DNA of 64,000 nt, from the NCBI GenBank assembly GCA_937967455.1, contig CALCJK010000016.1, positions 27,485 to 91,484 of the forward strand, read 5' to 3'. Of the stretch, positions 2,123 through 54,412 are shown piece after piece. A program made the translations under genes and the position numbers. The DNA comes from an uncultured bacterium. GTDB lineage: Bacteria; Bacteroidota; Ignavibacteria; UBA10030; BY39. The notes under the pieces were generated by a model, which was not told the DNA's origin, searched no databases, and was given only the letters and a program-made list of their open reading frames with translations. Each line of letters begins with the position of its first letter. Positions within the stretch are counted from its first letter, which is position 1.

Positions 2123-2124
2123 CT

Positions 2125-8635: not shown

Positions 8636-8681
8636 GATTATCACTATTTTAGTTACAAGAGAAGCACCGCTCTTAAAAAAT

Positions 8682-8803: not shown

Positions 8804-10189
8804 ATGAAAACCAGATATTTTATAACTTTTATTTTTATATTTTTATTCTGTTCTTTTCACCTTTTTAGTTATGATGGTGAGACCTACAGATCTTTTTCTC
8901 CTGTGAATCTGGCTACAGCAGAGAAAGCTGTTAAAAAACAAGTAAGCGCAAGTGAATGGAGTTTTACCTTTACAAATAATACAAATTATAGTGTTAATGG
9001 ATTGTATTTCGAATCAGCATCGAGTATTATTAATATTGACGATATTGGATTGTTTAACACTGTATCAAATTTGACAGCTGATCGTAAGAAGTGGCAATTT
9101 AATGGAACAGCTACAATTTCTCCAGGTCAATCTGTGGTAATAAAAGGGACTGGAACAAAGAAAGCATTAAAAATTTCAAAATGGTATTGGACTGTGAACG
9201 GTAATCGTGTTGGTTTTGTAAATAGATCATCACCTCCAGGTGAACAGAAATTTTTCTTGCCGATGCCAAATATCTCAAATTTAGGTGAAGAACTTTTTAA
9301 ACGCACTGACCTTTCAAAAGGGCTTGTTATTGGTATACCTCAAACGGTAAAAAATACAAATTATGCATGGGTTAGAATCAAGAAATGGAAGGATTTGCAG
9401 AAAAACTTAATTGATAATACTGGTATGCACATAGGGAATCCTCAAGGATTCAAAAGCTTTATTGATGGTAAACCAATTAAAGGTGAACAAAAATTATTAT
9501 CACCTAAAAAATTTAATGATAGATTATTTGCAGAACTTTTAACATTAAAATTTAACATTGCGGCAAGTAAATATGGTAGAACACCTGTAGGTTTTGATAA
9601 TTTAATTTACAATGATCCGACAAGTCCACTAAATGGATTGACAATTAATCAGATTGCCCTCAAAGCAGATTCGGCAATGACGTTCTACACAAAATTTTCA
9701 ACTGGTATGTTTATTATTTTGGAACAGACTATTAACAGAATTAACCGTGCCTTTGAAGGAGAAATTGATACTGTGAGTTTTGGTGCTAAAACAGTTTTTA
9801 CCGGAACTAGAGGATTGAGTGAAGTCAACTTTTTAACGGCTGGAAGGACCTCTTCAACAGTAACTTTGATTGAAAGAGAAAGTTTGCTAGATGAGGAATC
9901 TACATTTGAAATACCAGTACAAAATTATCCGAATCCTTTTAACCCAAAAACAATAATTGAATTTAAATTAAATAATGATGCGTTGGTAAGTTTGAAAGTT
10001 TATGATATGTTGGGAAGAGAAATTGCGGTATTGGCAGATGATGAGATGTTTGATGCAGGAGTGAATAGTGTTGAATTTGATGGGCAAAATTTAGCAGCTG
10101 GTATTTACTTTTACCAATTGATTGTTCGAGATGTAGATACGCAAGATTTGCTCTTTAAAACAGCAAAAAAGATGATTTTAAACAAGTAG
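8804..10189 (+). CDS. secreted protein with T9SS C-terminal sorting domain (function unknown)
   Basis: It has a signal peptide and an RBS AAAAGGAG. The C-terminal QNYPNPFNPKT...LKVYDMLGREI...AAGIYFYQL tail is present. It shares a roughly 160-aa pre-tail module with the next gene. Confidence 0.7.
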   Translation: MKTRYFITFIFIFLFCSFHLFSYDGETYRSFSPVNLATAEKAVKKQVSASEWSFTFTNNTNYSVNGLYFESASSIINIDDIGLFNTVSNLTADRKKWQFNGTATISPGQSVVIKGTGTKKALKISKWYWTVNGNRVGFVNRSSPPGEQKFFLPMPNISNLGEELFKRTDLSKGLVIGIPQTVKNTNYAWVRIKKWKDLQKNLIDNTGMHIGNPQGFKSFIDGKPIKGEQKLLSPKKFNDRLFAELLTLKFNIAASKYGRTPVGFDNLIYNDPTSPLNGLTINQIALKADSAMTFYTKFSTGMFIILEQTINRINRAFEGEIDTVSFGAKTVFTGTRGLSEVNFLTAGRTSSTVTLIERESLLDEESTFEIPVQNYPNPFNPKTIIEFKLNNDALVSLKVYDMLGREIAVLADDEMFDAGVNSVEFDGQNLAAGIYFYQLIVRDVDTQDLLFKTAKKMILNK

Positions 10190-10359
10190 GACAAAAAATT
10201 GCCTATTTTTTGTGATTTAGGGCATTTTTTAGAATATTTTTTTAAAAAAAATTAACTAACCACTTGCATCAAATCAAAGAAAATTATATATTATAGCAAA
10301 ACTCATTGCTATTTAATGGGTTAGCAAAATTATTAATATGTAAAGTCGAGTATAAAAAT

Positions 10360-12741: not shown

Positions 12742-12786
12742 TGTTTTAAGTCGAAAATTTATTATTAAATAAAAAAGTGTTTTATT

Positions 12787-32965: not shown

Positions 32966-34301
32966 ATGGATGTGGCATAGTAGCTATTGATTTTATGTCG
33001 TGTTGCTTTGTTGAAATCCATTGTTTTATAAGGTCATCAGTAAAAACATTTCCTTTTTTAAGAAATTCTTGGTCGTTATTGAGTGCTTCTAATGATTCTT
33101 CTAAGTTTTTTGGGAGGAATTTTATATTTTGGTTTGAATAAACATTTGTATCGACCGGACCAAGCCCTTCTTTTATTGGATCAATTTTTTTGGCTATTCC
33201 ATCTAATCCTGCCATCAGCATCGCGCTCATTAAGAGATATGGATTTGCAGTTGCATCTGGAGGTCTATACTCAAAACGTGCTTCTTCAGGGTTGTGAACA
33301 TAGGAAGGTATGCGTATTGCTGCCGAGCGATTTGCTTTCCCGAATGTAATTGCGACTGGAGCTTCAAATCCAGGCACTAGTCGTTTATATGAATTAGTAC
33401 TAGGATTTGTAAAAGCACATAAAGCGGGTGCATGGATTAATAATCCTCCGATAAATGATAATGCTAAATCATTTAAATTACCGTATCTATCTTTTTCATA
33501 AAAAATATTCTTATTGTTTTTCTTTAAGTATTGATGTACATGTAAACCGTTGCCGGCTTGTTGAAACATTGGTTTAGGCATAAATGTGATAAAAATGTTG
33601 TGTTGCCGAGCAAGGTTGAATAATAAATATTTCGCTAAAACTATTTTGTCACTAATTGTAAGCAGGTTATCAAATTGTATCTCTATTTCTTGCTGCCCCC
33701 TTTCACCCGCTTCGTGATGATGATACTTAACATCAATTCCCATCTGCTGAAAAAGCATTGTTGCTTCGTCTCTAAAATCATCGTAAATATCAAATGGATT
33801 TGCTGCATGGTAAGCATTCTGAAAAAATTCTTCTTCATGTTCAACTCGATAGAATGATGAGGCGGTTCTTGTATCAAACTCAACTTTTGAGAAAATATAA
33901 AATTCAAATTCTGGTCCCCAAAGTGATTCATCAGCAATTCCTGTTTGTAGCAAGTAATCCTGTGCTTTTCTGGCAACAAATCTACCGTCCTGGTTAAATC
34001 TCGATTTCTGTGAATCAGTTAAATGTATTTCTGTAAAAACACTTAGGGTTGGAATGTTGCGGAATGGATCTATTATGGCAGTAGCAATATCTGGTAATAA
34101 TATCATATCACTTTGTTCAACTTTTGAAAAACCATAACTTGATCCATCAAAACCTATCCCTTCTTTAATTAAACTTTCTAGTAATCCATCTTTGCATGGT
34201 AGAGTTATGTGATGTAATCTACCTACTAGATCTATTGTTTTTAAATCGATAAACTTAATTTGTTGATCTTTAATAATTTCCTTTAATTTTTCAATTTCCA
34301 T
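32937..34301 (-). CDS. glnA: glutamine synthetase family protein (type I-like)
   Basis: The N-terminal beta-grasp region, the catalytic motifs GPEFEFYIF and HHHEAGERGQQEI, and RIPSYVHNPEEARFEYRPPDATANPYL all parallel E. coli GlnA. Confidence 0.8.
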   Translation of the reverse strand: MEIEKLKEIIKDQQIKFIDLKTIDLVGRLHHITLPCKDGLLESLIKEGIGFDGSSYGFSKVEQSDMILLPDIATAIIDPFRNIPTLSVFTEIHLTDSQKSRFNQDGRFVARKAQDYLLQTGIADESLWGPEFEFYIFSKVEFDTRTASSFYRVEHEEEFFQNAYHAANPFDIYDDFRDEATMLFQQMGIDVKYHHHEAGERGQQEIEIQFDNLLTISDKIVLAKYLLFNLARQHNIFITFMPKPMFQQAGNGLHVHQYLKKNNKNIFYEKDRYGNLNDLALSFIGGLLIHAPALCAFTNPSTNSYKRLVPGFEAPVAITFGKANRSAAIRIPSYVHNPEEARFEYRPPDATANPYLLMSAMLMAGLDGIAKKIDPIKEGLGPVDTNVYSNQNIKFLPKNLEESLEALNNDQEFLKKGNVFTDDLIKQWISTKQHDIKSIATMPHPYEYKLYFNL

Positions 34302-34438
34302 ATTTTAGCAAATTATTATTTATTTAATTTTTAATTTTCAAAAAATATAACTATTTTAATTATCATTTACAATTTGCTATTAATTAGTTCCAGCATTAAA
34401 TTATCGTGTAATTTATTAAGAAAATCAGAATATATATA

Positions 34439-36052
34439 ATGCATCTTTACCATGAACATGGAAATCTGAATTCTCAAATCCAAAATAAAATCAATCATTA
34501 TAAAATATTTAAAGAATTACCCTTTCTCCCTGAGGAAAGAGAGACCACAACTATATTATTGGGTGGATTTACAATGAAGCACGACTTGCTTGTGCGTGCA
34601 GCCATTGAGGGTTTAGGTTATAAAGTTCAACATCTTCCAACTCCACAAATTCAAGCCTATCATACTGGTAGAGAATTTTGTAACAATGGAATGTGTAATC
34701 CAGCATATTTTACAATTGGTAATCTAATCCAATTTCTTTTTCAATTAACCCAGAAAGGATTGTCGAAGCAAGAAATTTTAAAAGATTATGTTTTTCTAAC
34801 AGTTGGGGCTTGTGGTCCATGTAGATTTGGTATGTATGAAAATGAATATCGATTAGCACTAAGAAATGCAGGATTCGAAGGATTTAGAGTATTGGTATTT
34901 CAACAAGTAAGTGGATTTAAGCAGACAGATGAAAATAGTGGTTTGGTTATGAATGAAGAGTTTTTCCTTGGTATTATTAAAGCAATATTAATAGCTGATT
35001 TGTTGAATGATTTTTATTATAAAGTTAAACCTTATGAGATTTTACAAGGAGAAACTGATTCGATTCTCGATAAATTAATAAAGGATATTTATAAAGATCT
35101 TAAATCTGAGCAAGGATTACTAAAAAATTTGTTAAAGATATACAAAATCCAAGATAATAAACTTTATTTTCTAATACTAAGAGAGTTGTTAGTTAATAAA
35201 TATCGACGTACTTTATCTTTTGCAACCAGTGAATTAAAAAAAATTAAGGTAGATAATTTAAGAGAGATGCCAATTGTAAAGATTACAGGTGAATTCTGGG
35301 CGCAAACTACAGAAGGTGATGGCAATTTTAAGATCTTTAAATATCTATTGAATGAAGGTGCCGAGATTATAATTGAGCCAATTACCAACTGGTTGCTTTA
35401 TCTTCTTTTCGATGCAAATCAATACTTAACTGATAGAAGAAAAATTATTAATGATAATTTTTCTAAAAAGGTTTCTTATTATAAAAACAGGTTATTGATT
35501 AAATTTGGAGAAAGATTAATCAATTATACATATAATAAATTCAGGAAATATTTATTGAATATACCGGAGAAATTAAGCGATCAGTATTTATTGGCTTCAC
35601 TGGCGGATGCATATTATAACAGTCATGCAAAAGGTGGAGAAGGGCATTTAGAAGTGGCTAAGAGTATATACTATACAAAAAATTATCTCGCACATATGAT
35701 ATTGTCAGTTAAGCCATTCGGTTGTTTGCCAAGCACACAGAGTGATGGTGTACAAGCTTTAGTAACAGCAAAATATCCCGAAATGATATTCTTACCAATC
35801 GAAACATCAGCTGAAGGTGAAATTAATGCTTATAGTCGTCTTCAGATGGCTTTGAGTGAAGCAAAACAAAAATGTAATTTAGAGATAGAATATGCATATG
35901 AAAAAACTAATTTAACAAAAGAAAAAATTCAAAATTTTTTATATAAAAATCCAGAATTTATGCAAGCTGGTTTTAAAGTAAAGAAACATCCTGGTATAAT
36001 ATCCAGAGCAGCAAATTTTATTTATCAGATGAGCAACATAATTAAAGAATAA
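34439..36052 (+). CDS. Cys-rich hypothetical protein, putative partner or dehydratase-component-like subunit of the downstream HgdC-like double ATPase
   Basis: The cysteine motifs are FCNNGMCNP, VGACGPCRFGMY and KPFGCLPSTQ. No family could be confirmed. It is tightly coupled to the next gene (13-nt gap). Confidence 0.4.
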   Translation: MHLYHEHGNLNSQIQNKINHYKIFKELPFLPEERETTTILLGGFTMKHDLLVRAAIEGLGYKVQHLPTPQIQAYHTGREFCNNGMCNPAYFTIGNLIQFLFQLTQKGLSKQEILKDYVFLTVGACGPCRFGMYENEYRLALRNAGFEGFRVLVFQQVSGFKQTDENSGLVMNEEFFLGIIKAILIADLLNDFYYKVKPYEILQGETDSILDKLIKDIYKDLKSEQGLLKNLLKIYKIQDNKLYFLILRELLVNKYRRTLSFATSELKKIKVDNLREMPIVKITGEFWAQTTEGDGNFKIFKYLLNEGAEIIIEPITNWLLYLLFDANQYLTDRRKIINDNFSKKVSYYKNRLLIKFGERLINYTYNKFRKYLLNIPEKLSDQYLLASLADAYYNSHAKGGEGHLEVAKSIYYTKNYLAHMILSVKPFGCLPSTQSDGVQALVTAKYPEMIFLPIETSAEGEINAYSRLQMALSEAKQKCNLEIEYAYEKTNLTKEKIQNFLYKNPEFMQAGFKVKKHPGIISRAANFIYQMSNIIKE

Positions 36053-36065
36053 CAATTATTTTAAT

Positions 36066-39000
36066 GTGAGAGAGCATTTAAAAAATATTTCATTAGTTGC
36101 AGGTATTGATATAGGTTCTACTACAATTAAAGGTTTGGTAGTCGATATTGAATCTGACACAATACTCTGGCAATGGTATGAAAGACACGAAACTAGAGTT
36201 GTCGAAAAGTTTCTGGAAGTGCTGCGGAAAATTGAAGAAGACCTGAACCTTGGGGCTGGTGAATTTTTTATTTATATGACTGGAAGTGGGGCAAATAATT
36301 TGTATCAAATAGTGAATGCAAAGTATGTTCAGGAAGTACATGCTATTTCTTTAATTGTTGAAAAGTACCATCCAGAAGTACATTCAATCATTGAGTTGGG
36401 TGGACAAGATGCAAAAATGATATTCTTTAAAGAGTTGCATGGTAAACGCAAGAAATATGCAACTATGAATGATAAGTGTGCTGGTGGCACAGGTGCTGTT
36501 ATTGATAAGATTATAGCTAAATTGAATATTTCTCACGAGGAAATTCAGAATTTGCGATATAATGGAGTTAAATTACATCAGGTTGCAGGTAAATGTGGAG
36601 TCTTTGCTGAAACTGATATTAACTCGCTTCAAAAACAGGGAATACCTAAAAATGAATTAATAGCTTCGCTATTTGAGTCGATTGTACAGCAAAATTTATC
36701 TGTACTTACAAGAGGTAATACGCTCTATCCAGAAGTTTTGCTCTTGGGTGGTCCAAACACATTTCTGCCAGGTTTGGTTGAAGCTTGGCAGGATAATATT
36801 CCTAGAATTTGGGAAGAAAGGAAAATTCACTTACCAGAAAATATAGATCCCAAATCACTGATTAAAGTTCCGCTCAATTCTGAATATTATGCCGCACTTG
36901 GTGCTATAGAATTTTTTAAAACAGATACTTACCCAGTTTGTATATACAAGGGTCTTACAGAAATAGTTGCCTTGGTGGAAAGTGATCGTCGCAATTTGAA
37001 ATCAAAATTTAGTGGAATGGGTTTGGTCAATACTAAAGATGAATTAAAATCTTTCATCGAAGAATATAAGATTCCTGAATTTAAAGAACCTGAAATTATT
37101 GGTATAGATAAGCTTGACGTTTTTATTGGCTTGGATGGAGGCTCTACATCTACAAAAGCAGTCATATTAAATAAAAATAAAGAGCTTGTTGCAAAAGAAT
37201 ATAGACTTTCAAAAGGGAATCCAATTGAGGACACAAGGGAAATATTTAAGAAGTTTAAACAAAAATTTGAGATGTTAAATGTTGAATTAAATGTTTTAGG
37301 AGTTGGTGTTACTGGATATGCCAAAGATATTTTAAAAGATTGTATTGGTGCGGATGTGGCGCTTGTTGAAACCGTTGCACATATGAAATCGGCTTTGCAT
37401 TATTTTGAGGATGTTGATGTAATTTGTGATGTAGGTGGGCAGGATATTAAAATAATAATTTTGAAGGATAAAAGAGTAGTTGATTTCAAATTAAATACAC
37501 AATGCTCAGCTGGAAATGGATATTTCTTACAGGCAACAGCTGAAAGTTTAGGTATAGATGTAAACCAATATGCTGAAGTAGCTTTTAAAGCTAAAAGAGC
37601 ACCAGAGTTCAGTTATGGTTGCGCAGTATTTTTGCAATCTGATATCGTTGACTTTCAAAGGCAAGGATGGAAACCTGAAGAGATATTAGCTGGACTTGCA
37701 AAAGTTTTGCCTAAAAATATTTGGCTATACATAGCACAAATGCCTAATATGGCAAAATATGGTTCAAGGTTTGTGCTACAGGGCGGCACACAATATAATT
37801 TAGCGGCTGTAAAAGCTCAAATTGATTTTATTAAGGAAAGATTTGCAAATATGAAAATCAATCCTCTAATTAAAATACATCCACATACAGGGGAAAGTGG
37901 TGCAATTGGAGTTGCTTTGGAAGCTCTGGAAAATTATCAAAGAGTAAAAAGGTCAAATTTTATAGGCTTTGATGCAATAGAATCAATAAAATACGAAACA
38001 AAGCGAGACGAAGAGACAAAATGCTACTTTTGTAAGAATCAGTGCTTGAGAACATTTATAGATATAATTACTTCACTTAATATTAAAAATGATAATTCAA
38101 ATAATTTCCCGTTTAAGCACGGTCCTGAACAATTACGCTCAGCTCGTGTAGAATTTGCTCAATTTACTGTTGATAATCAAGACCTCCGTGAAGTCAAAAA
38201 GGAGAGAATTATCATTGCTACCTGCGAAAAAGGCACTGTGGAAAATGCAAAATCTGTACAAGAAATTCAAAAGAAGATTGATGATATAAAAAATGTTAAT
38301 CCCAACCTTGTAGAATTTGCAGCAAAAAAAGTTTGGGAACCAACCAAGCCTAAATTAGTATCAGACCAAATACATATTGTAGTATTCACAAAGAAAGCTA
38401 AAATCAAGAGAAATTTAAAATTACAGCGTGATAGTGTAGTTATAGGGATTCCAAGATTACTCAATCTCTACTCATTCAATCCGTTCTTTAGTGCTTATTT
38501 TGAAAGTTTAGGTATAAAACCCGGCAATATTATTTATTCAGATTTTACCTCGGAAAAACTTTTTAAAGAAGGTTCAAGGCGTGGAACAATTGATCCATGC
38601 TATCCAAGCAAGCTTGCTATGGCACACATACATAATCTATTATTTGTCCACCATAAAAAGAAGAAACTTGATTATATTTTTTTCCCAAGTATCGACAGTA
38701 TGCCAAGCGATATGCAAAATTGTGTGGATCATCGTGGATGTCCAACAGCTGTTGCGACCCCATTTTCAACATATGCAGCCTTTACCAGAGAAAAAGATAT
38801 TTTTGAAGAATTTGGAGTGGGATATTTAAATCCCTTTTTAAACATGGGTGAACCAAAATTACTTGAGTTACAACTCTTTGAATATTTCGAATATATACTG
38901 GGGTTGACAAAGTCTGAAAATAAAAAAGCGGTGGAATGTGCTTACAAGGCGCTTTATACATTTCAAGATATTTTAAGAAGAAAAGGTAAGGAAGTCCTCC

Positions 39001-39575
39001 AGATGCTTGAAAGAGAAAACAGGATTGGTATTGTTGTTCTTGCTCGTCCTTATCATAATGATCCAGGTATAAATCATGGTATACTTGAGGAATTTCAAAA
39101 ACTTGGGTATCCTATTCTATCACAAGATTCTTTGCCAACAGATGAGGAAACGCTTAAGAAAGTTTTTAAGGATGACGAGGTACATCCAATGGAAATTAGT
39201 GATGTATGGAAGAACTCATATAGTGAAAACACAAATCGAAAAATCTGGGCAGCGAAGTTTGTTGCAAGACACCCAAATTTGGTTGCACTCGAGCTATCGA
39301 ATTTCAGGTGCGGACACGATGCACCTATATACTCGCTAATTCAGGATATCATAGAAATGAGCGGTAAACCATATTTTTGTTTTAAGGATATCGATGAAAA
39401 CAAACCAAAAGGTTCTATAAAAATTAGAATCGAAACAATTGCCTATTTCCTCAAAGAATATAAACAAATTTTCAAACCAGCCGAATCGGTATTGCAAGAA
39501 GATTTTATTAAAAGACAAAAATTTAATATTGATAAATTTATGATTACAAACTCTGCGCTAAAGAATAAAAATTAA
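36066..39575 (+). CDS. tandem BadF/BadG/BcrA/BcrD-type (HgdC-like) ATPase domains fused to a ~450-aa uncharacterised C-terminal domain
   Basis: Two actin-fold ATPase starts are present, VAGIDIGSTTIKGLVVD and FIGLDGGSTSTKAVILN. Each is followed by a pair of conserved cysteines (KCAGGTGAVIDK / GKCGVFAETD, and QCSAGNGYFLQ / YGCAVFLQSD), as in the [4Fe-4S]-bridging activators of 2-hydroxyacyl-CoA dehydratases. Confidence 0.7.
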   Translation: MREHLKNISLVAGIDIGSTTIKGLVVDIESDTILWQWYERHETRVVEKFLEVLRKIEEDLNLGAGEFFIYMTGSGANNLYQIVNAKYVQEVHAISLIVEKYHPEVHSIIELGGQDAKMIFFKELHGKRKKYATMNDKCAGGTGAVIDKIIAKLNISHEEIQNLRYNGVKLHQVAGKCGVFAETDINSLQKQGIPKNELIASLFESIVQQNLSVLTRGNTLYPEVLLLGGPNTFLPGLVEAWQDNIPRIWEERKIHLPENIDPKSLIKVPLNSEYYAALGAIEFFKTDTYPVCIYKGLTEIVALVESDRRNLKSKFSGMGLVNTKDELKSFIEEYKIPEFKEPEIIGIDKLDVFIGLDGGSTSTKAVILNKNKELVAKEYRLSKGNPIEDTREIFKKFKQKFEMLNVELNVLGVGVTGYAKDILKDCIGADVALVETVAHMKSALHYFEDVDVICDVGGQDIKIIILKDKRVVDFKLNTQCSAGNGYFLQATAESLGIDVNQYAEVAFKAKRAPEFSYGCAVFLQSDIVDFQRQGWKPEEILAGLAKVLPKNIWLYIAQMPNMAKYGSRFVLQGGTQYNLAAVKAQIDFIKERFANMKINPLIKIHPHTGESGAIGVALEALENYQRVKRSNFIGFDAIESIKYETKRDEETKCYFCKNQCLRTFIDIITSLNIKNDNSNNFPFKHGPEQLRSARVEFAQFTVDNQDLREVKKERIIIATCEKGTVENAKSVQEIQKKIDDIKNVNPNLVEFAAKKVWEPTKPKLVSDQIHIVVFTKKAKIKRNLKLQRDSVVIGIPRLLNLYSFNPFFSAYFESLGIKPGNIIYSDFTSEKLFKEGSRRGTIDPCYPSKLAMAHIHNLLFVHHKKKKLDYIFFPSIDSMPSDMQNCVDHRGCPTAVATPFSTYAAFTREKDIFEEFGVGYLNPFLNMGEPKLLELQLFEYFEYILGLTKSENKKAVECAYKALYTFQDILRRKGKEVLQMLERENRIGIVVLARPYHNDPGINHGILEEFQKLGYPILSQDSLPTDEETLKKVFKDDEVHPMEISDVWKNSYSENTNRKIWAAKFVARHPNLVALELSNFRCGHDAPIYSLIQDIIEMSGKPYFCFKDIDENKPKGSIKIRIETIAYFLKEYKQIFKPAESVLQEDFIKRQKFNIDKFMITNSALKNKN

Positions 39576-39589
39576 GCAGTCCTAAAATT

Positions 39590-40468
39590 ATGATAAGTGA
39601 AAAAATCTGGACGATAAAAAGATTGCTGGAATGGGCTACAAGCTATCTTAATGAGAAAGGAATCGATGATTCACGTTTAAATGCAGAGCTTTTATTGTGT
39701 CATGCACTCAAATATCAAAATCGGATAGATTTATACTTACATTTTGATAAACCACTTAGACAAAGCGAGTTAGATATATTTAAAGTTTTTTTGAAAAGAA
39801 GATTAACTGGAGAGCCGGTTCAATATATTATAGGCGAAACAGAATTTATGGGATTTAAATTTAAGGTTGATTCAAGAGTTTTAATCCCTCGCCCTGAGAC
39901 CGAGCTATTAGTTGAATCTGTACTTAAGTTATTAAAAAAAATTAAGAAACCGGGATTAAAAATTCTCGAGATCGGAACTGGATGCGGAAATATTTCTATC
40001 AGTATCGCCAAATTATTTCCTGATTTAGAAATTACAGCAATCGATTCCAGTAAATCAGCTCTTGAAGTTGCTGAACTCAACATTAAGAACCATGGATTAT
40101 CACAAAATATTAAATTAATGTTCATAAATATATTTGATGATGTACCAAAATTAAGGAATTTTGATATTATCGTATCTAATCCACCCTATATTTCGATTGA
40201 TGAATATCAGATATTGTCGGATGAAATTAAAAACTTTGAACCCAAAATTGCATTAACAGATGGAAAAGATGGTTTATCTTATCATTATAGAATTGCTGAT
40301 ATTGGAAGAAGTTTACTGAATGAAATTGGATGGCTCTTTCTGGAAATTGGATATGATCAAAAAGAAGAAGTGGTTAATATTCTGGAAAAGTTTGGATATT
40401 TTGATGTTGAAGTTATGCAAGACTATGGAGGCAATGATAGAATAGTAAAAGCAAAATGGAGCCGATAA
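39590..40468 (+). CDS. prmC: release-factor glutamine N5-methyltransferase
   Basis: The NPPY motif (VSNPPYIS), the SAM-binding [10 protein letters not shown], and the HemK-like N-terminus are present. Confidence 0.85.
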
Positions 40469-40932
40469 TGAGGGCTTTAGTACAAAGAGTTTTGGAAGCC
40501 AGTGTAGAAGTTGATTCCAAGATTATAGGTAAAATAAACAAAGGCATTTTAATTTTTTTAGGTGTTTCTAATAATGATGTTGAAAAAGATGCATATTACC
40601 TTGCAGAAAAATGTGCAAACCTGCGAATATTCGAGGATGAGCAGGGCAAAATGAATCTATCTGTACGAGATGTAAATGGTAGTGCACTTGTAGTTTCTCA
40701 ATTTACACTTTATGCCGATACAAGCAGGGGAAACCGTCCAAGTTTTAGCGAAGCAGCATCTCCACAAAAGGGGGAAGAATTGTATAACATATTTTTAGAA
40801 TATCTTAAGAATATACTCGGAAATGAAAAAGTAGCAAACGGAATATTCAGAGCTATGATGAAAATATATTTAATAAACGATGGTCCCGTAACAGTAATGG
40901 TAGAATCAAAGAATAAAGGTAAATTACAATGA
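40456..40932 (+). CDS. dtd: D-aminoacyl-tRNA deacylase
   Basis: MRALVQRV...[17 protein letters not shown] matches the DTD family. The size is 158 aa. Confidence 0.88.
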
Positions 40933-41669
40933 AAATAATCCATTTATTTTTAATCATCTTAATCTTTTTAAGTTACACTTACTCACAAAATATTACAATT
41001 CAATACGAAGAAATGAAATACAAGAGTTTTAAAATTTCCTTCCAAAAAGATTTAAATTTGGAGGAAGTTAAATCAATAGGTGACCAATTGGATCATTACT
41101 TGAATCACTGGAAAAACATATTAAAAATTAAGAAAGTTAGAAATGTAGAATTTCGTTTATATAAATCTGAAAAAGCTTACAAAAACAAGTCAAATGTTAA
41201 CTTTAATCAGGAAGTTTTTCTTTATAAAGATATTATTCACTTATCTCCCAAAATTTTTGATAGAAATTATTTATTAACTGATAAGTTGTTAGCAAATGCT
41301 GTTGTTTTGGCTTTATTAAAAGAATCGGGTAAAAAAGGTTGTCCAAAATGGTTGATTGAATCTTATGCGATATATTTGTCTGGAATGAGAGATGCTGATC
41401 AACAAAGCACAATTAATATCTCTTATAGTCTTAAAGATTTTAAACAAGAATATTCTCAACTCAAGAAGGAAAGTCAATACAAAGCATTTTTGTCAAAGAG
41501 CTCAGTATTTTTTGAGTTTGTAAATAAAAGATATGGTAGTGAGAGATTAAATTATTTATTTAGACTGTTTAATGGTAAAAGGTCAGAGGAACAAGCTTTT
41601 GAGATGGCTTTTGGAGAGAAGTTTGATGAAATCGAAAGAGCCTGGAAGGTTTATCTCAGAAAAAATTAG
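40929..41669 (+). CDS. hypothetical secreted protein
   Basis: It has a signal peptide ([20 protein letters not shown]). No family recognised. Confidence 0.4.
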
Positions 41670-41688
41670 AAGTGCAAAAAAAGTTCTA

Positions 41689-42585
41689 ATGCTATTTCTA
41701 GATGGAGTCGGAGTAGGGAACAAAAATCCTGATAAAAATCCTTTTTTTAAAACAGACTTTCCAGCATTAAAATTTATACTTAATGAACGAATGCCTCATA
41801 TCAATAAACATTCAATTAGAGATAATTATGTTTTTTATAAAAATATCAATGCTACACTTGGTATTGCTGGATTGCCTCAGAGTGGAACAGGACAGACGGC
41901 ATTATTGTGCGGTATGAACGCAGCAAGATTTATTGGTAAACATTTTGGACCCTATCCTTATTCAACTTTAGTTGATGTATTAGCTAATAAAAATATTTTT
42001 CTGCAAGTAGAAATTTCAGGAAAAAAGCCTTTTTATGTGAATGCTTATCCGCCGAAATATTTTGATTATATTAAGAATAGAAAATCACACCGTACAGCTA
42101 CAACATTAGCTTGGACCTTATCTGGGAATAGTTTAAATGATTTTAGAAAATTAAGAAAATCTGAAGCTTTATCATCTGATATTACAGGTGAAAGATGGAA
42201 TAATCTCGGTTTCCCTAAGATTGATGAAATTAATCCAGAAGAAGCAGGGAAAAGGTTGGTAAGTTTTTTTAAAAATTATGACTTTGTTTTTTTTGAGTAT
42301 TTTTATACAGATCATGCGGGTCATCATCAATCAATGGAAAAAGCAACCGAAGAGTTAAAAAAAATAGATTCTTTAATTGCAGGTATATTGAGCAGCTTTA
42401 ATAAAAATGAGATGACGCTGATTATTACAAGCGATCATGGAAATATTGAAGACCTATCTGTAAGAACTCATACAAGGAATCCAGTACCTTTAATTGTTTA
42501 TGGGGAAATGGCAAAACGTATAAATTCAGGTATCAAAAATATCTCACAAATAACTCCAGAAATTATAAAATTTTTTAATGAATAA
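41689..42585 (+). CDS. alkaline-phosphatase-superfamily metalloenzyme domain protein (ApgM/phosphopentomutase-like)
   Basis: The track ORF begins at 41572 inside the previous gene. The in-frame ATG at 41689 gives MLFLDGVGVGN, which is metalloenzyme-like. The C-terminal ITSDHGNIEDL...HTRNPVPLIVYG resembles cofactor-independent mutases. Confidence 0.5.
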   Translation: MLFLDGVGVGNKNPDKNPFFKTDFPALKFILNERMPHINKHSIRDNYVFYKNINATLGIAGLPQSGTGQTALLCGMNAARFIGKHFGPYPYSTLVDVLANKNIFLQVEISGKKPFYVNAYPPKYFDYIKNRKSHRTATTLAWTLSGNSLNDFRKLRKSEALSSDITGERWNNLGFPKIDEINPEEAGKRLVSFFKNYDFVFFEYFYTDHAGHHQSMEKATEELKKIDSLIAGILSSFNKNEMTLIITSDHGNIEDLSVRTHTRNPVPLIVYGEMAKRINSGIKNISQITPEIIKFFNE

Positions 42586-48264: not shown

Positions 48265-49098
48265 ATGAAAAAATATCTCCGTTTTATAAAAATTGAGCAC
48301 ACATTATTTTCACTACCTTTAGTCTACGCTGGAGTATTTCTCGCAGTTGAAGATTTTCCATCCTCGAAATTATTGATTTTAGTACTATTAGCGGCAATTG
48401 GTGCAAGAATATTTGCAATGTCGATAAATAGAATCATTGATGCTGAAATCGATAAGAGAAATGCTCGTACAAAAAATCGAGAAATACCTTCCAATCAAAT
48501 GAATATATTTGAAGGATTTGCAATTGCGATTGCTGGATTGATAATTTATTTATCTTCAGCATATTATATTTCTATCTTTTGCTTTTTTCTTTCTCCAATA
48601 CCATTAATTATTTTTGTAATTTACCCTTACTTGAAAAGGTTTACAAAATTAGCACACTTCGGTGTTGGATTAGGACTTTCAATGGCACCACTGGGAGGGT
48701 GGTTTGCAGTAAAAAATAGTTTTGAACAATTACATATTGGTTTGTTATTACCTTTGTTTACTTTTTTTTGGGCAACAGGCTTCGATATTATATATTCCAC
48801 TCTTGATGAATCGTTTGATAAAAAAGAGGGACTATTTTCTTTCCCGGCTGTTTATGGTTCACAAAAAGCACTAAAATTTTCAGCTCTTTTACATGTACTT
48901 TCATTTATTGTGTTAATTATTACCTATATAATTACAATAAATAAAATTGCTGCGCTTCCGTTTTTGTTATTCACAGGTTACTTGCTGTATCTTGAACAAA
49001 AAAAATCTACAGATGTCGAACTTGCATTTTTTAAGATAAATGCAATAGTAGGATTTGTCGTTTTTATTATGATCATGATGAAAGGAATAAAATTATGA
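48265..49098 (+). CDS. UbiA-family aromatic prenyltransferase (MqnP-like candidate)
   Basis: A polytopic membrane protein with the prenyltransferase Asp-rich region NRIIDAEIDKRNARTKNR. It overlaps ubiX and lies just upstream of the UbiD-like gene. Confidence 0.75.
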   Translation: MKKYLRFIKIEHTLFSLPLVYAGVFLAVEDFPSSKLLILVLLAAIGARIFAMSINRIIDAEIDKRNARTKNREIPSNQMNIFEGFAIAIAGLIIYLSSAYYISIFCFFLSPIPLIIFVIYPYLKRFTKLAHFGVGLGLSMAPLGGWFAVKNSFEQLHIGLLLPLFTFFWATGFDIIYSTLDESFDKKEGLFSFPAVYGSQKALKFSALLHVLSFIVLIITYIITINKIAALPFLLFTGYLLYLEQKKSTDVELAFFKINAIVGFVVFIMIMMKGIKL

Positions 49099-49646
49099 AA
49101 ATTGCTGTAGGAATTACAGGATCATCAGGTGCAATATTTGCAGTGGAATTTTTGAAGAATTGCCCTGCAGAAAAGTTTTTGGTAGTATCTAAGTGGGGTA
49201 AAGTGGTGCTTAAAGATGAAGTTGGACTAACAGACAAGGATCTTAAGCCTTATATTAAAAGACAATTTTCAAATGATGATCTTACTTCACCATTAGCTTC
49301 AGGAACAAATTCGATCGATGCTGTAATTATTATCCCATGTACAACATCTACAATTGGAAAAATTGCTTCTGGTATTGGTGATACACTCTTAACAAGAATG
49401 GCACAGGTCGCATTAAAAGAAAAAAGGAAACTCATATTGTGTGTTAGGGAAACTCCGCTCTCAACAATTACACTTGAACAAGCATGGAAATTATCAAGAG
49501 ATGGTGTGATAATTATGCCTATATCTCCACCATTGTATTTTAAACCACAAAATATACAGGAATATGTTGATGCATTTGTAAATAAGCTGAATGGCGTATT
49601 AGGAGTTCAGGAAATTAAGGGTTGGAGGTATGAAGAGTTAGAATGA
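49095..49646 (+). CDS. ubiX: flavin prenyltransferase UbiX/Pad1 family
   Basis: The N-terminus reads MKIAVGITGSSGAIFA. The size is 183 aa. Confidence 0.85.
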   Translation: MKIAVGITGSSGAIFAVEFLKNCPAEKFLVVSKWGKVVLKDEVGLTDKDLKPYIKRQFSNDDLTSPLASGTNSIDAVIIIPCTTSTIGKIASGIGDTLLTRMAQVALKEKRKLILCVRETPLSTITLEQAWKLSRDGVIIMPISPPLYFKPQNIQEYVDAFVNKLNGVLGVQEIKGWRYEELE

Positions 49647-51460
49647 TCAGAAAATTCACTTCTTTAAAAGAATTTGTGTTTTATCTTGAATCTATTGGTG
49701 ATTTGCATCGCATTCAAGTCGAAGCAGATCCATACCTAGAAACCACTGAAGTTGCAATACGGGCATTAAAAGAGAACAAACCTGCCATACTTTTTGAAAA
49801 TCCCAAAGGGGCAAAGTTTCCACTTGCTATGAATATTCTGGCAAGTGAAAAAAGAATTGAACATGCCCTTGGTGTTCATCCTGAAGAGTTGGGAGAAAAA
49901 TTAATAAAATTTATCGAAATTATTTTTCCCCCGAATTTTAAAGTTTTATTGAAACATAGTTCAATGTTGTTTAGATTTCTTCGTGCAATACCTAAAAAAT
50001 CTCATGGGTTTTCACAGGATGTGATCAAAGACCCAGATTTATCACAGCTACCAATACAAAAATGCTGGCCAGGTGATGGTGGAAAATTTATTACTCTTGG
50101 ACAAGTAATTACTTATGACCCATTAAGTAAAAAAAGGAATATTGGCATTTACAGGATGCAAGTTTTTGATAATGTATCGACTGGTATGCACTGGCAAATT
50201 CAGAAAGGTGGTGGTTTTCATTATTATCAAGCTCAAAAACTAAATCAACCACTCGAAGTTGCTGTAGTAATAGGTAGTGATCCAGCACTTTTGCTCGCCA
50301 GTGTAGCAGCACTACCTGAAGGTATTGATGAAGTTTTATTTGCAGGTTTTTTACGAAATGATAGGATTCGGTTAACAAAAGCTAAAACAATTTCAATTGA
50401 TGTCCCATCTAATGCTGAATTTATTTTGGAAGGTAAAATCTCACCTACGGAATCAAGATTAGAAGGACCTTTTGGAGATCATTTTGGCCATTATTCGGCA
50501 GAATCTAATTTTCCAGTTTTTAGGTTAAGTGCAATCACTCACAGAAAAGATCCAATTTATCCGGGTACTATTGTAGGCAAACCACCAATGGAGGATAAAT
50601 TTTTAGGGAATGCAACTCAGCAAATTCTTGGTCCACTTATTCGACTAATCCATCCTGAGATTAAAAGTTTATGGGCATATTACGAAGCGGGATTTCATAA
50701 CCTGCTTGTAATTGCAATAGAAGAAAGGTACGAAAAGGAAGCTCTCAAAACAGCCCTCTCAGTAGTAGGTGAAGGTCAGCTCTCACTAACTAAATGTGTA
50801 ATTACTGTTTCTGCAGATGTTAACCCAAGAGATTGGAGTGCTGTATTAAATGAAATTAAACAGAATTTTGATCCGAAGTATGATTTTGTAATGGTTCCAA
50901 AAGTTCCACTGGATACACTCGACTTTACAAGTTACAAGATGAACCTCGGAAGTAAAATGATTATTGATGCGTGTAAGAAGAGAACTCGGAAATATGATAC
51001 ACAAAATATCCCAAAATATAATGTCAAAGATGTGATGCAATATCTATTAAATCTTAACAATCGAATACTTGATGTAAATATTTTACAAGATACATTGTTA
51101 ATTGTTAAAGTAAATTCAAACATTTTTGGAATAGAAACACCAGAACAATCCATTGGTAAGAAAATTGTCCAGAAAATTATTTTAGATCCACAATTTTCAG
51201 ATTATAAAATAATTGCAGTTGTTAGCGAAGATGTGAATATTCACGATCAGGAAAGTTATATCTGGGGTATTTTCACACGATTTGACTGTGAAAGGGATAT
51301 AATTTTCAAAGAACAAAAATTAATTGGAATATCACCTGTGTATTCTGGACCTATGGGAGTTGATGCAACCTGGAAATATGGTTATCCAAAACCATTATTG
51401 ATGGATGAGTCAATTATCAGGTTAGTAGACAATAAATGGAATACATATTGGAAAAAGTGA
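49643..51460 (+). CDS. UbiD-family (prFMN-dependent) decarboxylase
   Basis: The size (605 aa) and a UbiD-like N-terminal region fit. It is translationally coupled to ubiX. Confidence 0.8.
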   Translation: MIRKFTSLKEFVFYLESIGDLHRIQVEADPYLETTEVAIRALKENKPAILFENPKGAKFPLAMNILASEKRIEHALGVHPEELGEKLIKFIEIIFPPNFKVLLKHSSMLFRFLRAIPKKSHGFSQDVIKDPDLSQLPIQKCWPGDGGKFITLGQVITYDPLSKKRNIGIYRMQVFDNVSTGMHWQIQKGGGFHYYQAQKLNQPLEVAVVIGSDPALLLASVAALPEGIDEVLFAGFLRNDRIRLTKAKTISIDVPSNAEFILEGKISPTESRLEGPFGDHFGHYSAESNFPVFRLSAITHRKDPIYPGTIVGKPPMEDKFLGNATQQILGPLIRLIHPEIKSLWAYYEAGFHNLLVIAIEERYEKEALKTALSVVGEGQLSLTKCVITVSADVNPRDWSAVLNEIKQNFDPKYDFVMVPKVPLDTLDFTSYKMNLGSKMIIDACKKRTRKYDTQNIPKYNVKDVMQYLLNLNNRILDVNILQDTLLIVKVNSNIFGIETPEQSIGKKIVQKIILDPQFSDYKIIAVVSEDVNIHDQESYIWGIFTRFDCERDIIFKEQKLIGISPVYSGPMGVDATWKYGYPKPLLMDESIIRLVDNKWNTYWKK

Positions 51461-51491
51461 AAAAATTATTAAATAAAATAGTATCAAAAAT

Positions 51492-53351
51492 ATGAAAATT
51501 AATTTTATAGATAAATCCTTAATACCAATCTGGGAAAAAATACAGAATTCTGAAAGATTGTCGTTTGAAGATGGAATTAAGCTGTTTCAAACAAACGATT
51601 TAATTTCACTTGGTAAAATGGCTAATTGGTATAGCTTTACTAAAAGTGGTGATTCTGTTTATTTCGTGTTGAACAGAAAAATTGAACATACAAATATTTG
51701 TGTTCTTTCCTGTAAATTCTGTGATTTTGCTAAGAAAAAAGGTGAACCCGGTGCTTATGAAATGACAACGGAAGAGATATTATCCAAGCTTTCTGATGAA
51801 ATACAGGAGGTTCATATAACTGGTGCAATGCCACCTGATTGGAATTGGGAAAGATATATAGATATCGTTAAATCAATTCACTCTAAATTTCCAAAAATTG
51901 ATATTAAAGCGTATACAGCGGTTGAAATTGATTTTTTCCATAAGAAATTTAAAATACCAGTTGAGAATATTCTGCTCGAGTTGAAAGATGCTGGATTAAA
52001 AACTTTACCTGGTGGAGGAGCAGAGATATTTTCAGAACGAGTTCGTCGATTGCTTTTCAATCAAAAAATTGGAGAAAAACGCTGGCTTGAGATTCATAAA
52101 ATTGCGCATAGACTTGGAATTCCAAGTAATGCAACCATGCTATATGGACATATAGAAACTGTTGAAGAGAGAGTGTCACATTTGGTAAAACTTCGGAAAG
52201 CTCAAGACGAATCTGGAGGATTTCTGAGCTTTATCCCACTTGCATTTCAACCTGGTGAAACAGGTATAAAACCAAAAGAGGATTTCACTTCGGCAATTGA
52301 TGATCTTAAAACTATTGCTGTAAGTCGTTTGATGCTTGATAATATTCCACATATAAAAGCTTACTGGGTAATGTTAACTGAAGAGGTGGCTGCGGTTGCA
52401 TTGAATTTCGGAGCAGACGATATCGATGGAACAGTTGGCGAAGAACACATAGCACACGATGCTGGTGCAATTAGTCCAATGAAGTTAGCGAAAGAACAAA
52501 TTATCAGAATAATTAAAGAAGCCGGAAAAGTAGCTGTCGAAAGAGATGTGTTTTATAATCCAATAAAAATATATGGAAATAAAATTATAGGCAAAATTCC
52601 TTATTTAAATTCAATTCCAATTTATCACAACCTGAAAATCGAAGGATATAAAACTGTAACACTCTTTCCAAGCCAACTTGGTAAAATGATTGCTAATGGT
52701 GATATTAGTGCTGGGCTGATATCTCTTGTTGATTATTTTAAAAATAAGGATAAATTAAAAATTTCTAAATGGTGTGTATCGAGTCGTAATAAAGTTCAAA
52801 GTGTGATACTCTTTTCCAAATTTTCCTGGGAAAACTTACATAAGAAAAGAATTGGAATATCTGAAGAAACATCAACTTCAGTACTTTTACTAAAAATTTT
52901 ACTTTTGAAGAAGTACAATGTAAAAGCTGATTTTGAAATATTTAACCCTTCATTGAAAAACTATTCTGAGTACGATGCGATTTTATTAATTGGTGATAAT
53001 GCTCTTAGAGAACTATACAACCCTAAAAAGGATTTTAGCTATACTTATGATCTTTCAGAGGAGTGGTATAGCTGGCAGGGATTACCCTTTGTGTTTGCTG
53101 TTTGGGTTGAAAAGCAGAATTTTACTGATGAAATAATCGTTGATGATATTATTATTAAGCAGAATATAGATAAGAATTTATCTAACATTGGAAATATAAT
53201 TAGCTATTACAAAAGTACAATTTCTTTATCAGATGACAAATTAATTGAATACATTAAAGGATTTAAGTATGAGATTAATGAGGAAGAAAATTTAGCTATT
53301 AATAAATTCCAGAATTTACTTGAGGAAATTAATGTATGCTTGAAAGTATAA
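51492..53351 (+). CDS. radical-SAM menaquinone (futalosine-route) enzyme of the MqnC/MqnE family fused to a C-terminal MqnA/MqnD-fold domain
   Basis: The N-terminal half has CVLSCKFCDF (Cx3Cx2C) and parallels the next gene throughout. The C-terminal roughly 250 aa begin IIGKIPYLNSIPIYHN and contain PFVFAVWV, as in MqnA-type chorismate dehydratases. Confidence 0.7.
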   Translation: MKINFIDKSLIPIWEKIQNSERLSFEDGIKLFQTNDLISLGKMANWYSFTKSGDSVYFVLNRKIEHTNICVLSCKFCDFAKKKGEPGAYEMTTEEILSKLSDEIQEVHITGAMPPDWNWERYIDIVKSIHSKFPKIDIKAYTAVEIDFFHKKFKIPVENILLELKDAGLKTLPGGGAEIFSERVRRLLFNQKIGEKRWLEIHKIAHRLGIPSNATMLYGHIETVEERVSHLVKLRKAQDESGGFLSFIPLAFQPGETGIKPKEDFTSAIDDLKTIAVSRLMLDNIPHIKAYWVMLTEEVAAVALNFGADDIDGTVGEEHIAHDAGAISPMKLAKEQIIRIIKEAGKVAVERDVFYNPIKIYGNKIIGKIPYLNSIPIYHNLKIEGYKTVTLFPSQLGKMIANGDISAGLISLVDYFKNKDKLKISKWCVSSRNKVQSVILFSKFSWENLHKKRIGISEETSTSVLLLKILLLKKYNVKADFEIFNPSLKNYSEYDAILLIGDNALRELYNPKKDFSYTYDLSEEWYSWQGLPFVFAVWVEKQNFTDEIIVDDIIIKQNIDKNLSNIGNIISYYKSTISLSDDKLIEYIKGFKYEINEEENLAINKFQNLLEEINVCLKV

Positions 53352-54412
53352 TAAATAAAATAAATTCAAGTGAGAGAATAAATTTTGATGAGGCATTATA
53401 TCTTTTACGAAGAACTGATATTCTAGATCTTGGTGAACTTGGAAATATTATTAGGTTTCGAAAAAATCCTGATCCACATGTTACATTTGTTGTGGATACA
53501 AATCCAAATTATACAAATGTGTGTACAATTGATTGTATATTTTGTGCTTTTTATCGCCATCCAGGAGAAGAAGGAGAATATACTCTTTCTATCGATGAAT
53601 TAATTCAGAAGTTTAAAGAATCAGCAAACAAGGGTGTTACAACAATCTTACTTCAAGGTGGAGTAAACCCCAATTTGCCATTGGATTATTATCTTGAACT
53701 GGTTTATCGGACACGTAATGAAGTTCCAGAGATTCACCCTCATTTTTTTTCTGTTTCAGAAATTGTTGGAATGGCTGAGGTATCAAAACTTCCGATAGAA
53801 GAAGTTTTGCAGAGATTGTGGGATGCTGGTTTAAGAACTATCCCTGGTGGAGGTGCTGAAATTTTATCAGATCGGATTAAGAAAAAAATCTCGCATAAGA
53901 AAGAAACTTCCGAGCAATGGCTGAACGTTATGCGAGTTGCACATCGAATTGGATTTAAAACTACGGCAACTATGATGTATGGGCACCTCGAAACGGATGA
54001 AGATATTATTCTGCATCTGGAAAGTCTACGAAAATTGCAAGACGAAACACAGGGTTTTACTGCATTCATTCCCTGGTCTTTTAAGCCAGGTAATACCCCG
54101 CTTGAAAAAATTATACCACATTATGCATCAAGCACCAGATATTTACAAATAATTGCATTATCCAGAATTTATCTGGATAATTTTCCTCATGTTCAAGCAT
54201 CATGGTTTTCAGAAGGTAAAAAAATTGGCCAGATAGCACTACATTTTGGTGCTGACGATTTTGGCGGAACATTACTCGAAGAGAATGTCCATGCAGCAGC
54301 CAATTATGTAAGTAAATCCAATACTGATGAAGTTATTAGTTTGATAAAGAAAGCAGGTTTTATTCCTGTACAAAGAACAACTCTATACGAGATATTAAAG
54401 ATATATAATTGA
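53336..54412 (+). CDS. radical-SAM menaquinone (futalosine-route) enzyme, MqnC/MqnE family
   Basis: It has CTIDCIFCAF (Cx3Cx2C) and strong end-to-end similarity to the N-terminal half of the previous gene (GGGAEI..., TATMMYGH..., FGADDFGGT...). Confidence 0.75.
   Translation: MLESIINKINSSERINFDEALYLLRRTDILDLGELGNIIRFRKNPDPHVTFVVDTNPNYTNVCTIDCIFCAFYRHPGEEGEYTLSIDELIQKFKESANKGVTTILLQGGVNPNLPLDYYLELVYRTRNEVPEIHPHFFSVSEIVGMAEVSKLPIEEVLQRLWDAGLRTIPGGGAEILSDRIKKKISHKKETSEQWLNVMRVAHRIGFKTTATMMYGHLETDEDIILHLESLRKLQDETQGFTAFIPWSFKPGNTPLEKIIPHYASSTRYLQIIALSRIYLDNFPHVQASWFSEGKKIGQIALHFGADDFGGTLLEENVHAAANYVSKSNTDEVISLIKKAGFIPVQRTTLYEILKIYN

Follow-up and report, generated by a model that had tools for sequence, protein, structure and literature searches.

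In this study we examined a 64,000-nucleotide stretch of DNA from an uncultured bacterium (GenBank assembly GCA_937967455.1, contig CALCJK010000016.1, positions 27,485 to 91,484 of the forward strand; hereafter the window), and in particular two adjacent genes in it, which we named R and A. Comparison of their products with known proteins suggested that R and A probably form a two-subunit, ATP-dependent iron-sulfur (Fe-S) reductase of the radical type, belonging to the PlsA/PlsR family and resembling Ger, which would convert the ester of a membrane glycerolipid into an ether. PlsA/PlsR (the anaerobic plasmalogen synthase) and Ger consist of two BcrAD_BadFG domains, a DUF2229 domain and a second module resembling 2-hydroxyacyl-CoA dehydratase (HAD) (PMC13159169, PMC12838417, PMC9702350, PMC8788747), and expression in E. 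coli showed that they turn glycerolipid esters into vinyl or alkyl ethers (PMC13159169, PMC12838417, PMC9702350). The initial annotation of this region, made from the sequence alone, had described two adjacent open reading frames (ORFs) of 537 and 1169 amino acids (aa), 13 nucleotides apart on the plus strand, and had read them as an ATP-driven, [4Fe-4S]-type double activase fused or coupled to its putative catalytic partner. The ORFs were confirmed and this general architecture was supported, with the DUF2229 domain of A as one catalytic-type module and R as the second. The accompanying view that the system is biochemically undefined and potentially novel found no support, because the same architecture is found in PlsA/PlsR and Ger, both of which have been expressed heterologously (PMC13159169, PMC12838417, PMC9702350). 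The R-A pair is a divergent member of the known PlsA/PlsR-Ger family, with a predicted function, and not a new kind of system.

The PlsA-type references with which R and A were compared comprised the fused proteins of Listeria monocytogenes (1475 aa), Haliovirga and Collinsella, the two separate proteins of Fusobacterium animalis (975 aa, then 404 aa), and the protein of Paraclostridium. The Listeria, Haliovirga, Collinsella and Fusobacterium sequences were taken from PLSDB records that are chromosome pieces labelled as plasmids. The alignment of A with the N-terminal ~1000 residues of the Listeria, Haliovirga, Collinsella and Fusobacterium references covered 96% of A, and A was 30-35% identical to these four proteins and to that of Paraclostridium over ~890-1010 aligned residues. 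R matched the 404-aa PlsR-type protein of Fusobacterium (E 7e-16, residues 48-480) as well as the fused proteins in their C-terminal portions (E 1e-17 to 1e-20), at 26-27% identity to the PlsR-type references, and alignment of R with a PlsR-type profile in hhalign gave 99.9% probability (E 8.4e-34, 410 columns). The motifs NNxxC(N/Y)P, GxCR, RPYE, GEG(H/W)L and PFGC(L/M)P were common to R and the PlsR-type proteins, and in the multiple alignment C86, C128 and C429 of R coincided with three cysteines of these proteins. All 11 conserved cysteines of A were found in the Listeria, Haliovirga, Collinsella and Fusobacterium references; the divergent Paraclostridium protein had no linker cysteine motif. 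These alignments identify R as a full-length PlsR homologue. Pfam reported for the Fusobacterium PlsR-type protein merely a sub-threshold DUF2229 fragment, and PlsR-type partners therefore go unnoticed. As a side observation on the source of the references, the evident chromosome pieces among the PLSDB "plasmids" included NZ_LR134399.1 (a 394-kb Listeria "plasmid 2"; locus L010) and NZ_CP011076.1 (1.38 Mb, Brevibacillus; locus L011).

In A, Pfam recognized BcrAD_BadFG (PF01869) in two stretches (E 7e-77, 259 bits) and, after these activation domains, DUF2229 (PF09989) on residues 793-1023 (E 8.5e-49); these E-values are far beyond chance. The NCBIfam model TIGR00241 ("acyl-CoA dehydratase activase") also matched A twice. 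The solved relatives of the two ATPase domains were MbdQ/MbdP, HgdC, HadI and DCCP-R: in phmmer searches domain 1 matched HgdC (1HUX) at E 2.8e-17, as well as HadI (4EHT) and MbdP, and domain 2 matched MbdQ (E 5.8e-26) and HgdC (E 2.8e-23). C138/C177 and C480/C519 aligned with Cys127 and Cys166 of HgdC (1HUX), the ligands of its cluster, so that both cysteines are kept in each domain, and all four were conserved in 100% of 119 homologues. These results agree with the initial annotation, which had proposed two ATPase domains with a cysteine pair each and a cluster site formed by a single chain; one chain of A can indeed provide the four cysteines needed for a bridging cluster. That annotation had also named membership of a ROK or sugar-kinase family, or loss of the cysteine pairs, as grounds for rejecting its reading; the pairs are retained, and on A both ROK (19.4 bits, cut-off 22.9) and FGGY_N (21.7 bits, cut-off 28.8) stayed below the Pfam gathering thresholds. 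Among the three families that it had singled out for a Pfam check, BcrAD_BadFG and DUF2229 matched A, but HGD-D (PF06050) gave no match at E <= 0.01 to either A or R.

Beyond the ATPase domains, the initial annotation had counted about 450 residues of unknown function. This portion is actually ~540 aa long and consists of a linker with a CxxCxxxC...C motif, followed by DUF2229. The linker cysteines C653 (99%), C656, C660 and C720 (100% each) were conserved in the 119 homologues, and the confidence of the AlphaFold2 model was low across this motif. C845, C892 and C1082 of DUF2229 were invariant in the same set. The AlphaFold2 model of residues 631-1169 (pLDDT 77) matched DCCP, HadC, MbdN and BzdN best. 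Because of the DUF2229 match, the conserved cysteines and this model, we read the C-terminal part of A as a catalytic-type domain resembling those of HAD, benzoyl-CoA reductase (BCR) and the double-cubane protein DCCP, placed after the cysteine-motif linker.

R had no sequence match in Pfam, NCBIfam or the PDB, where hits at E 0.3-7 were noise. It had been called Cys-rich, which is not borne out by six cysteines in 537 residues, of which four (C86, C125, C128 and C429) were invariant among 36 aligned homologues. The CxxxxC and CxxC motifs noted earlier do exist, as C81-x4-C86 and C125-x2-C128, but C81 is not conserved. We predict that the four invariant cysteines are [4Fe-4S] ligands. Structural models of R fitted HadC, DCCP, BzdN and MbdN/O best. 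R and the C-terminal half of A would thus be related by fold only, as BLASTP detected no similarity between them. Homologues of R number in the thousands and are 530-640 aa long; a profile search among 1.84 billion representatives returned 2291 clusters at 50% identity (E <= 0.001). Their database names vary between "activator of 2-hydroxyglutaryl-CoA dehydratase" and "predicted nucleotide-binding protein", both of them misleading. The subgroup to which R of the window belongs is without an N-terminal helix or region of ~60 aa that is present in the forms of 590-640 aa.

The conservation of these residues, together with the literature on related enzymes, led us to the following model of action. 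By analogy with HgdC and HadI, and given the ligand conservation seen in the sequence, the two actin-fold ATPase domains of A would form an intramolecular pseudo-dimer carrying one [4Fe-4S] cluster on C138, C177, C480 and C519. ATP hydrolysis would push a low-potential electron from this bridging cluster, possibly via the linker cysteines, to a catalytic pair made up of the DUF2229 domain of A with its three invariant cysteines and R with its four, both modules being predicted to have the catalytic-subunit fold of 2-hydroxyacyl-CoA dehydratases, benzoyl-CoA reductases and double-cubane proteins. That R and A would associate as a heterodimer is suggested by the conserved adjacency of their genes and by natural fusions, both described below. 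Up to four [4Fe-4S] clusters are predicted for each A-R pair. Reduction of the ester carbonyl would proceed in one-electron steps via a ketyl-type intermediate, and loss of water would give a vinyl ether, as has been proposed for PlsA/PlsR; this might then be reduced further to a saturated alkyl ether, as reported for Ger-type enzymes. A membrane glycerolipid is the likely substrate, and not an acyl-CoA, because R is a PlsR homologue and the architecture is that of PlsA/PlsR and Ger.

R and A were tightly linked in related loci (numbered with an L below), nine of which were genome loci from a contig scan with one protein as query. The two genes were adjacent in 9/9 genome loci and also in Brevibacillus laterosporus; overall, this held for 74 of 88 loci. 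Their order was R-A in the Ignavibacteriota and Acidobacteriota types and A-R in Flavobacteriales relatives and Brevibacillus, and natural fusions occurred in both orders (R-A in protein P0272, A-R in P0288). Neighbouring genes were clustered on the basis of non-overlapping ORFs, and these revealed a lipid context in relatives. A homologue of Tes, the archaeal tetraether synthase, was encoded within 10 kb of the pair in eight of ~86 loci (L014, L015, L017, L023 with two copies, L033, L054, L067 and L081). These Tes homologues came from several phyla, and B12-binding radical SAM genes occurred alongside some of them; the one in L015 matched GDGT-MAS (7TOL) at E 2.8e-64. As Tes is rare in bacteria (456 hits from 13,919 bacterial genomes; PMC8941075), we infer, from this comparison of counts rather than from a formal test, that eight adjacencies per ~86 loci are far above chance.

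Other recurrent neighbours of the pair were B12-binding radical SAM genes (six loci), accA (four loci), two squalene/phytoene synthase genes with an amine oxidase gene (three loci), a sigma-54 response regulator (nine loci), and, divergently oriented upstream of R in 11 metagenome loci, a gene for an LMF1-like membrane protein. The LMF1-like protein has 447 aa and matches the families LMF1 and LMF1_C ("lipase maturation factor"). Directly after A, in at least 10 loci and in many Acidobacteriota- and Ignavibacteriota-type relatives, there was a gene for a conserved protein of 84-95 aa with the sequence pattern MFEIYRE..YN.RYKVVYFTELNEHN..EINRALAGEHF.DGF..., which contains no cysteine and had no Pfam match. 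This protein might act as a third subunit or as a chaperone; neither the window, nor L001, nor the Flavobacteriales and Brevibacillus loci contain its gene. The coordinates of these features and of those in the window are given in Table 1.

Table 1. Positions of the R-A pair, its predicted domains and selected neighbouring genes in the window and in related loci.
Feature	Sequence	Coordinates	Strand	Remarks
R gene	Window	34439..36052	+	ATG start; 537 aa; PlsR-type second reductase/dehydratase subunit, predicted HAD/BCR/DCCP-like fold
Span of the four invariant Cys codons of R	Window	34694..35725	+	C86 34694-34696; C125 34811-34813; C128 34820-34822; C429 35723-35725
Spacer between R and A	Window	36053..36065	+	13 nucleotides, read from the sequence
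A gene	Window	36066..39575	+	GTG start; 1169 aa; PlsA-type, Act1-Act2-Cys linker-Red1
ATPase domain 1 of A	Window	36093..36935	+	~aa 10-290; C138 (36477-36479), C177 (36594-36596)
ATPase domain 2 of A	Window	37122..37940	+	~aa 353-625; C480 (37503-37505), C519 (37620-37622); Pfam BcrAD_BadFG 354-620
Linker Cys motif of A	Window	38022..38225	+	C653-x2-C656-x3-C660 ... C720; candidate extra Fe-S site
Red1, DUF2229/HAD-like domain of A	Window	38442..39470	+	~aa 793-1135; C845 (38598-38600), C892 (38739-38741), C1082 (39309-39311)
Tes homologue	L014	12358-14229		Zn_ribbon_HMPTM + Radical_SAM
Tes homologue	L015	2244-4190		Zn_ribbon_HMPTM + Radical_SAM
Tes homologue	L017	6853-8940		Zn_ribbon_HMPTM + Radical_SAM
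Tes homologues	L023	6581-8248, 8399-10339		Tandem; Zn_ribbon_HMPTM + Radical_SAM
LMF1-like gene	L038	183-1604		
LMF1-like gene	L052	2909-4252		
LMF1-like gene	L077	5523-6935		
LMF1-like gene	L083	8376-9758		
LMF1-like gene	7 more loci			
84-95-aa gene	L012	11717-11992		
84-95-aa gene	L014	11613-11894		
84-95-aa gene	L016	11597-11884		
84-95-aa gene	L017	6580-6834		
84-95-aa gene, further loci	L009, L023, L024, L046, L055, L056, L085, L092, L093, L096			

Several single loci showed peculiarities of their own. A second A-like gene in opposite orientation lay near the pair in L055 (6393-9680, minus strand), L069 (17087-18778, minus strand) and L075 (5729-7399, minus strand); the one in L075, 27% identical, may be a PlsA-type paralogue. 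In L009 (9692-12330; bin MFD09964) the A homologue was recovered as three separate tblastn pieces, which suggests frameshifts, due either to a pseudogene or to an assembly error. The A-R pair of B. laterosporus (L011) is situated just downstream of lanthipeptide-type dehydratase genes (Lant_dehydr_N/Lant_dehydr_C) and a PqqD/M50-like gene (region 1164-5687), and a gene of the diacylglycerol-kinase family (13722-14609) follows 2.5 kb downstream of it.

A pair that appears to be of the same type has been described in Solibacter usitatus. Halamka et al. listed Acid_0921 (589 aa) as a PlsR homologue with 20.9% identity to C. perfringens PlsR (PMC10087280, supplement Table S5) and Acid_0922 (1188 aa) as a PlsA homologue with 30.2% identity to C. 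perfringens PlsA (PMC10087280, Table S5), and proposed that these adjacent genes form the ether bonds of the precursors of brGDGTs (branched glycerol dialkyl glycerol tetraethers), a published hypothesis (PMC10087280). The ether lipids of S. usitatus, which lacks ElbD, include brGDGTs as well as iso-C15 mono- and diethers (PMC10087280). Our assignment of Acid_0921/0922 to the type of the R-A branch was drawn from protein lengths, the order of locus numbers and identity levels: in two-gene layout, order, lengths and identity to C. perfringens PlsA/PlsR they resemble the pair of the window and its Acidobacteriota relatives, while R of the window differs in being without the ~60-aa N-terminal region, and its organism is represented by an Ignavibacteriota-like metagenome-assembled genome (MAG) and not by an acidobacterium. 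We had considered R as a previously unrecognized PlsR partner; this was ruled out by the listing of its S. usitatus counterpart (PMC10087280). As to the product, Ger and PlsA are not separable by sequence (PMC13274423, PMC11868695). Saturated alkyl glycerol ethers are weakly favoured over plasmalogens because of the linkage to Tes and the lipids of S. usitatus, and this is the weakest step of our reading.

The R-A proteins form a separate and strongly conserved branch, with identities of 50-86% (A) and 45-84% (R) inside it, carried by Ignavibacteriota, Bacteroidota, Acidobacteriota, Latescibacterota and Brevibacillus. The branch is marked by a fourth cysteine of R, C125, in the sequence CGPCRFG where the references have GGGCR, by the motifs FWAQTTEGDGN and PSTQSDG, and by insertions that make R longer by ~130-200 residues than the PlsR-type references; the linker of A is also longer than in PlsA-type references.

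Several observations weigh against an ether-forming PlsA/PlsR-type function of the pair. The validated orthologues share 41-55% identity (PMC12838417), above the 30-35% of A and 26-27% of R to our references, and those references do not include the enzymes validated in C. perfringens, E. faecalis, T. maritima and D. alkenivorans. The traits peculiar to the branch (fourth cysteine, longer R, longer linker, small third gene) could go with another substrate. Adjacency to Tes is limited to ~9% of the related loci. The window offers no lipid context: the pair sits among glnA, prmC, dtd, comEC and a mutase gene, and neither a Tes, nor a B12-radical-SAM, nor the small-protein gene was found in its 64 kb. 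The PlsA and Ger enzymes that were tested are oxygen-sensitive, and the carriers Vicingus and Brevibacillus are described as aerobes. S. usitatus, too, is described as an aerobe (PMC10087280).

Some of these points would be accommodated if R and A were a functionally new branch of PlsA/PlsR-family enzymes acting on another ester or carbonyl instead of the sn-1 acyl chain of a diacyl glycerophospholipid, with the sn-2 position, membrane-spanning tetraesters and other lipid classes as candidates. A tight branch with 50-86% identity inside against 30-35% to PlsA-type proteins, C125, the two branch motifs, the insertions of R and the third gene of many relatives are consistent with such a shift, as are the varied neighbours of the pair (Tes, B12 radical SAM, squalene/phytoene synthase, LMF1-like), and the origin of sn-2 ethers is unclear in the literature (PMC8788747). 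All Fe-S ligands and core motifs are, however, common to the branch and PlsA/PlsR, the evidence points to no particular alternative substrate, and S. usitatus, an apparent carrier, produces mono- and dialkyl glycerol ethers of the ordinary kind (PMC10087280), so that we consider a changed substrate improbable. We regard it as less probable still that, in line with the initial annotation, the pair is an enzyme like 2-hydroxyacyl-CoA dehydratase or benzoyl-CoA reductase, with a fused activator and a CoA thioester substrate in fermentation or aromatic degradation. HgdC, HadI and MbdP/Q as the nearest solved relatives of the ATPase domains, HadC, BzdN and MbdN/O among the nearest folds of R and DUF2229, and the database name "activator of 2-hydroxyglutaryl-CoA dehydratase" would fit such an enzyme. 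Against this, HGD-D was unmatched by both proteins, and the class I benzoyl-CoA reductase equivalogs of NCBIfam scored far under their cut-offs (TIGR02259, 127.9 against 578; TIGR02261, 98.4 against 312.85; TIGR03192, 89.1 against 380.2). Genes for a CoA-transferase, a CoA-ligase, ferredoxin, or amino-acid or aromatic pathways did not lie beside the pair in the window, nor did they recur there in ~90 related loci, and the homology to PlsA/PlsR-type proteins is much stronger. A DCCP-type reductase with a fused DCCP-R-like ATPase and a small-molecule substrate is most unlikely. In DCCP six cysteines ligate an [8Fe-9S] cluster in one subunit; the modules here have four (R) and three (DUF2229) invariant cysteines, and the match to the DCCP fold was no better than that to HadC.

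If R and A are indeed a PlsA/PlsR-family reductase of glycerolipid esters, a wider and more tentative hypothesis can be framed, which we put forward as possible though doubtful. The branch, with the small third protein in many lineages, might be the missing ether-forming enzyme in the synthesis of brGDGTs and alkyl glycerol ethers, working with the adjacent bacterial Tes homologue; the fourth cysteine, the insertions and the small partner might adapt an otherwise oxygen-sensitive, ATP-driven Fe-S reductase to soil bacteria that are exposed to oxygen, for example Solibacter; and the organism of the window might be an unrecognized producer of ether lipids. brGDGTs are widely used palaeoclimate proxies, and their producers and ether-forming enzyme are unsettled (PMC10087280, PMC13274423). 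The recurrent physical linkage of the branch with bacterial Tes homologues, seen in several phyla, provides a concrete gene set with which the question of the brGDGT ether bond can be approached experimentally. The distribution of the branch suggests Ignavibacteriota, Flavobacteriales relatives and Brevibacillus as possible ether-lipid producers; a search of the literature turned up nothing relevant on ether lipids in Ignavibacteria. Surveys of Pfam architecture see only the protein of this branch with the BBD core (two PF01869 and PF09989), as the second module is an adjacent gene without a Pfam or NCBIfam model. A 2026 preprint on sponge symbionts read its BBD-only "Ger" hits, which may or may not be part of the R-A branch, as having no second reduction domain (10.64898/2026.06.23.733905). 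For the window alone, our analysis provides the correct annotation of two poorly named genes.

In the window, glnA lies upstream of R in divergent orientation, and prmC starts 15 nucleotides after A, with dtd and further housekeeping genes behind it. In GC content the R-A region resembles the rest of the window; together with the housekeeping neighbours, this does not suggest a defence system or a mobile element. A scan of positions 34200-40600 for promoters and terminators gave counts not above those of shuffled sequence. The closest genome locus, that of "Ignavibacteriae bacterium BY39", had identical neighbours and 84% (R) and 85% (A) identity, and protein P0121 in public MAG data, for which a search for encoding contigs returned none, was 100% identical to A; the organism of the window is Ignavibacteriota-like. 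Elsewhere in the window, four large proteins in a row (positions 4751-16779; 1294, 461, 811 and 1330 aa) each carry a type IX secretion C-terminal sorting domain, the last of them being an M14 carboxypeptidase with a MAM-like domain. A run of menaquinone genes of the futalosine type (48265-54412) includes a UbiA prenyltransferase, a UbiX-like flavoprotein, UbiD, a 619-aa protein in which a radical SAM MqnC/E-like part is fused to a VitK2_biosynth (MqnA/D-like) domain (51492-53351), and a second MqnC/E-like radical SAM gene. ORFs 40929-41669 and 41572-42585 overlap by 98 nucleotides as listed, and the true start of the latter (metalloenzyme/phosphodiesterase family) is probably further downstream.

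Among known systems, the pair is closest to PlsA/PlsR (CPE1195/CPE1194 of C. perfringens; fused in Enterococcus, Listeria and Bifidobacterium), with which it shares Act1, Act2, the CxxCxxxC...C linker, DUF2229 (Red1) and Red2. As in the PlsA/PlsR of C. perfringens and Fusobacterium, the second module has a separate, adjacent gene; in contrast, the order is R-A here and A-R in Fusobacterium, and R is 537-640 aa long, against 404-420 aa for PlsR, with a fourth invariant cysteine and no Pfam match. With Ger (Thermotoga maritima Tmari_0479; Desulfatibacillum alkenivorans SHJ90043) the pair has the BBD core in common, which was found conserved in all producers of alkyl ethers (PMC13159169), and a carrier of this type, S. 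usitatus, is reported to form saturated ethers (PMC10087280). Ger, however, is one fused chain; Pfam gives small HGD-D and DUF2229 matches in its C-terminal part, whereas here this part is a separate, Pfam-blank protein. The likeness to Ger was judged by domain layout. HadBC/HadI, HgdAB/HgdC, BzdNOPQ and MbdONPQ share the ATPase fold with its [4Fe-4S]-bridging cysteine pair, the catalytic-subunit fold and ATP-driven electron injection. The activator of the HadI, HgdC and BCR systems is a separate homo- or heterodimer and not a fused tandem, and, unlike 2-hydroxyacyl-CoA dehydratases and BCR, the R-A pair has no HGD-D match, no context of CoA metabolism and a likely lipid-ester substrate. In the DCCP/DCCP-R system of Carboxydothermus hydrogenoformans (PDB 6ENO, 7YYL), DCCP ranked first or nearly first among the structural matches of both catalytic-type modules, and its ATPase partner is of the same family, but identity in the structural alignments was 9-14%, each module here has fewer conserved cysteines, and DCCP is a homodimer with a separate reductase.

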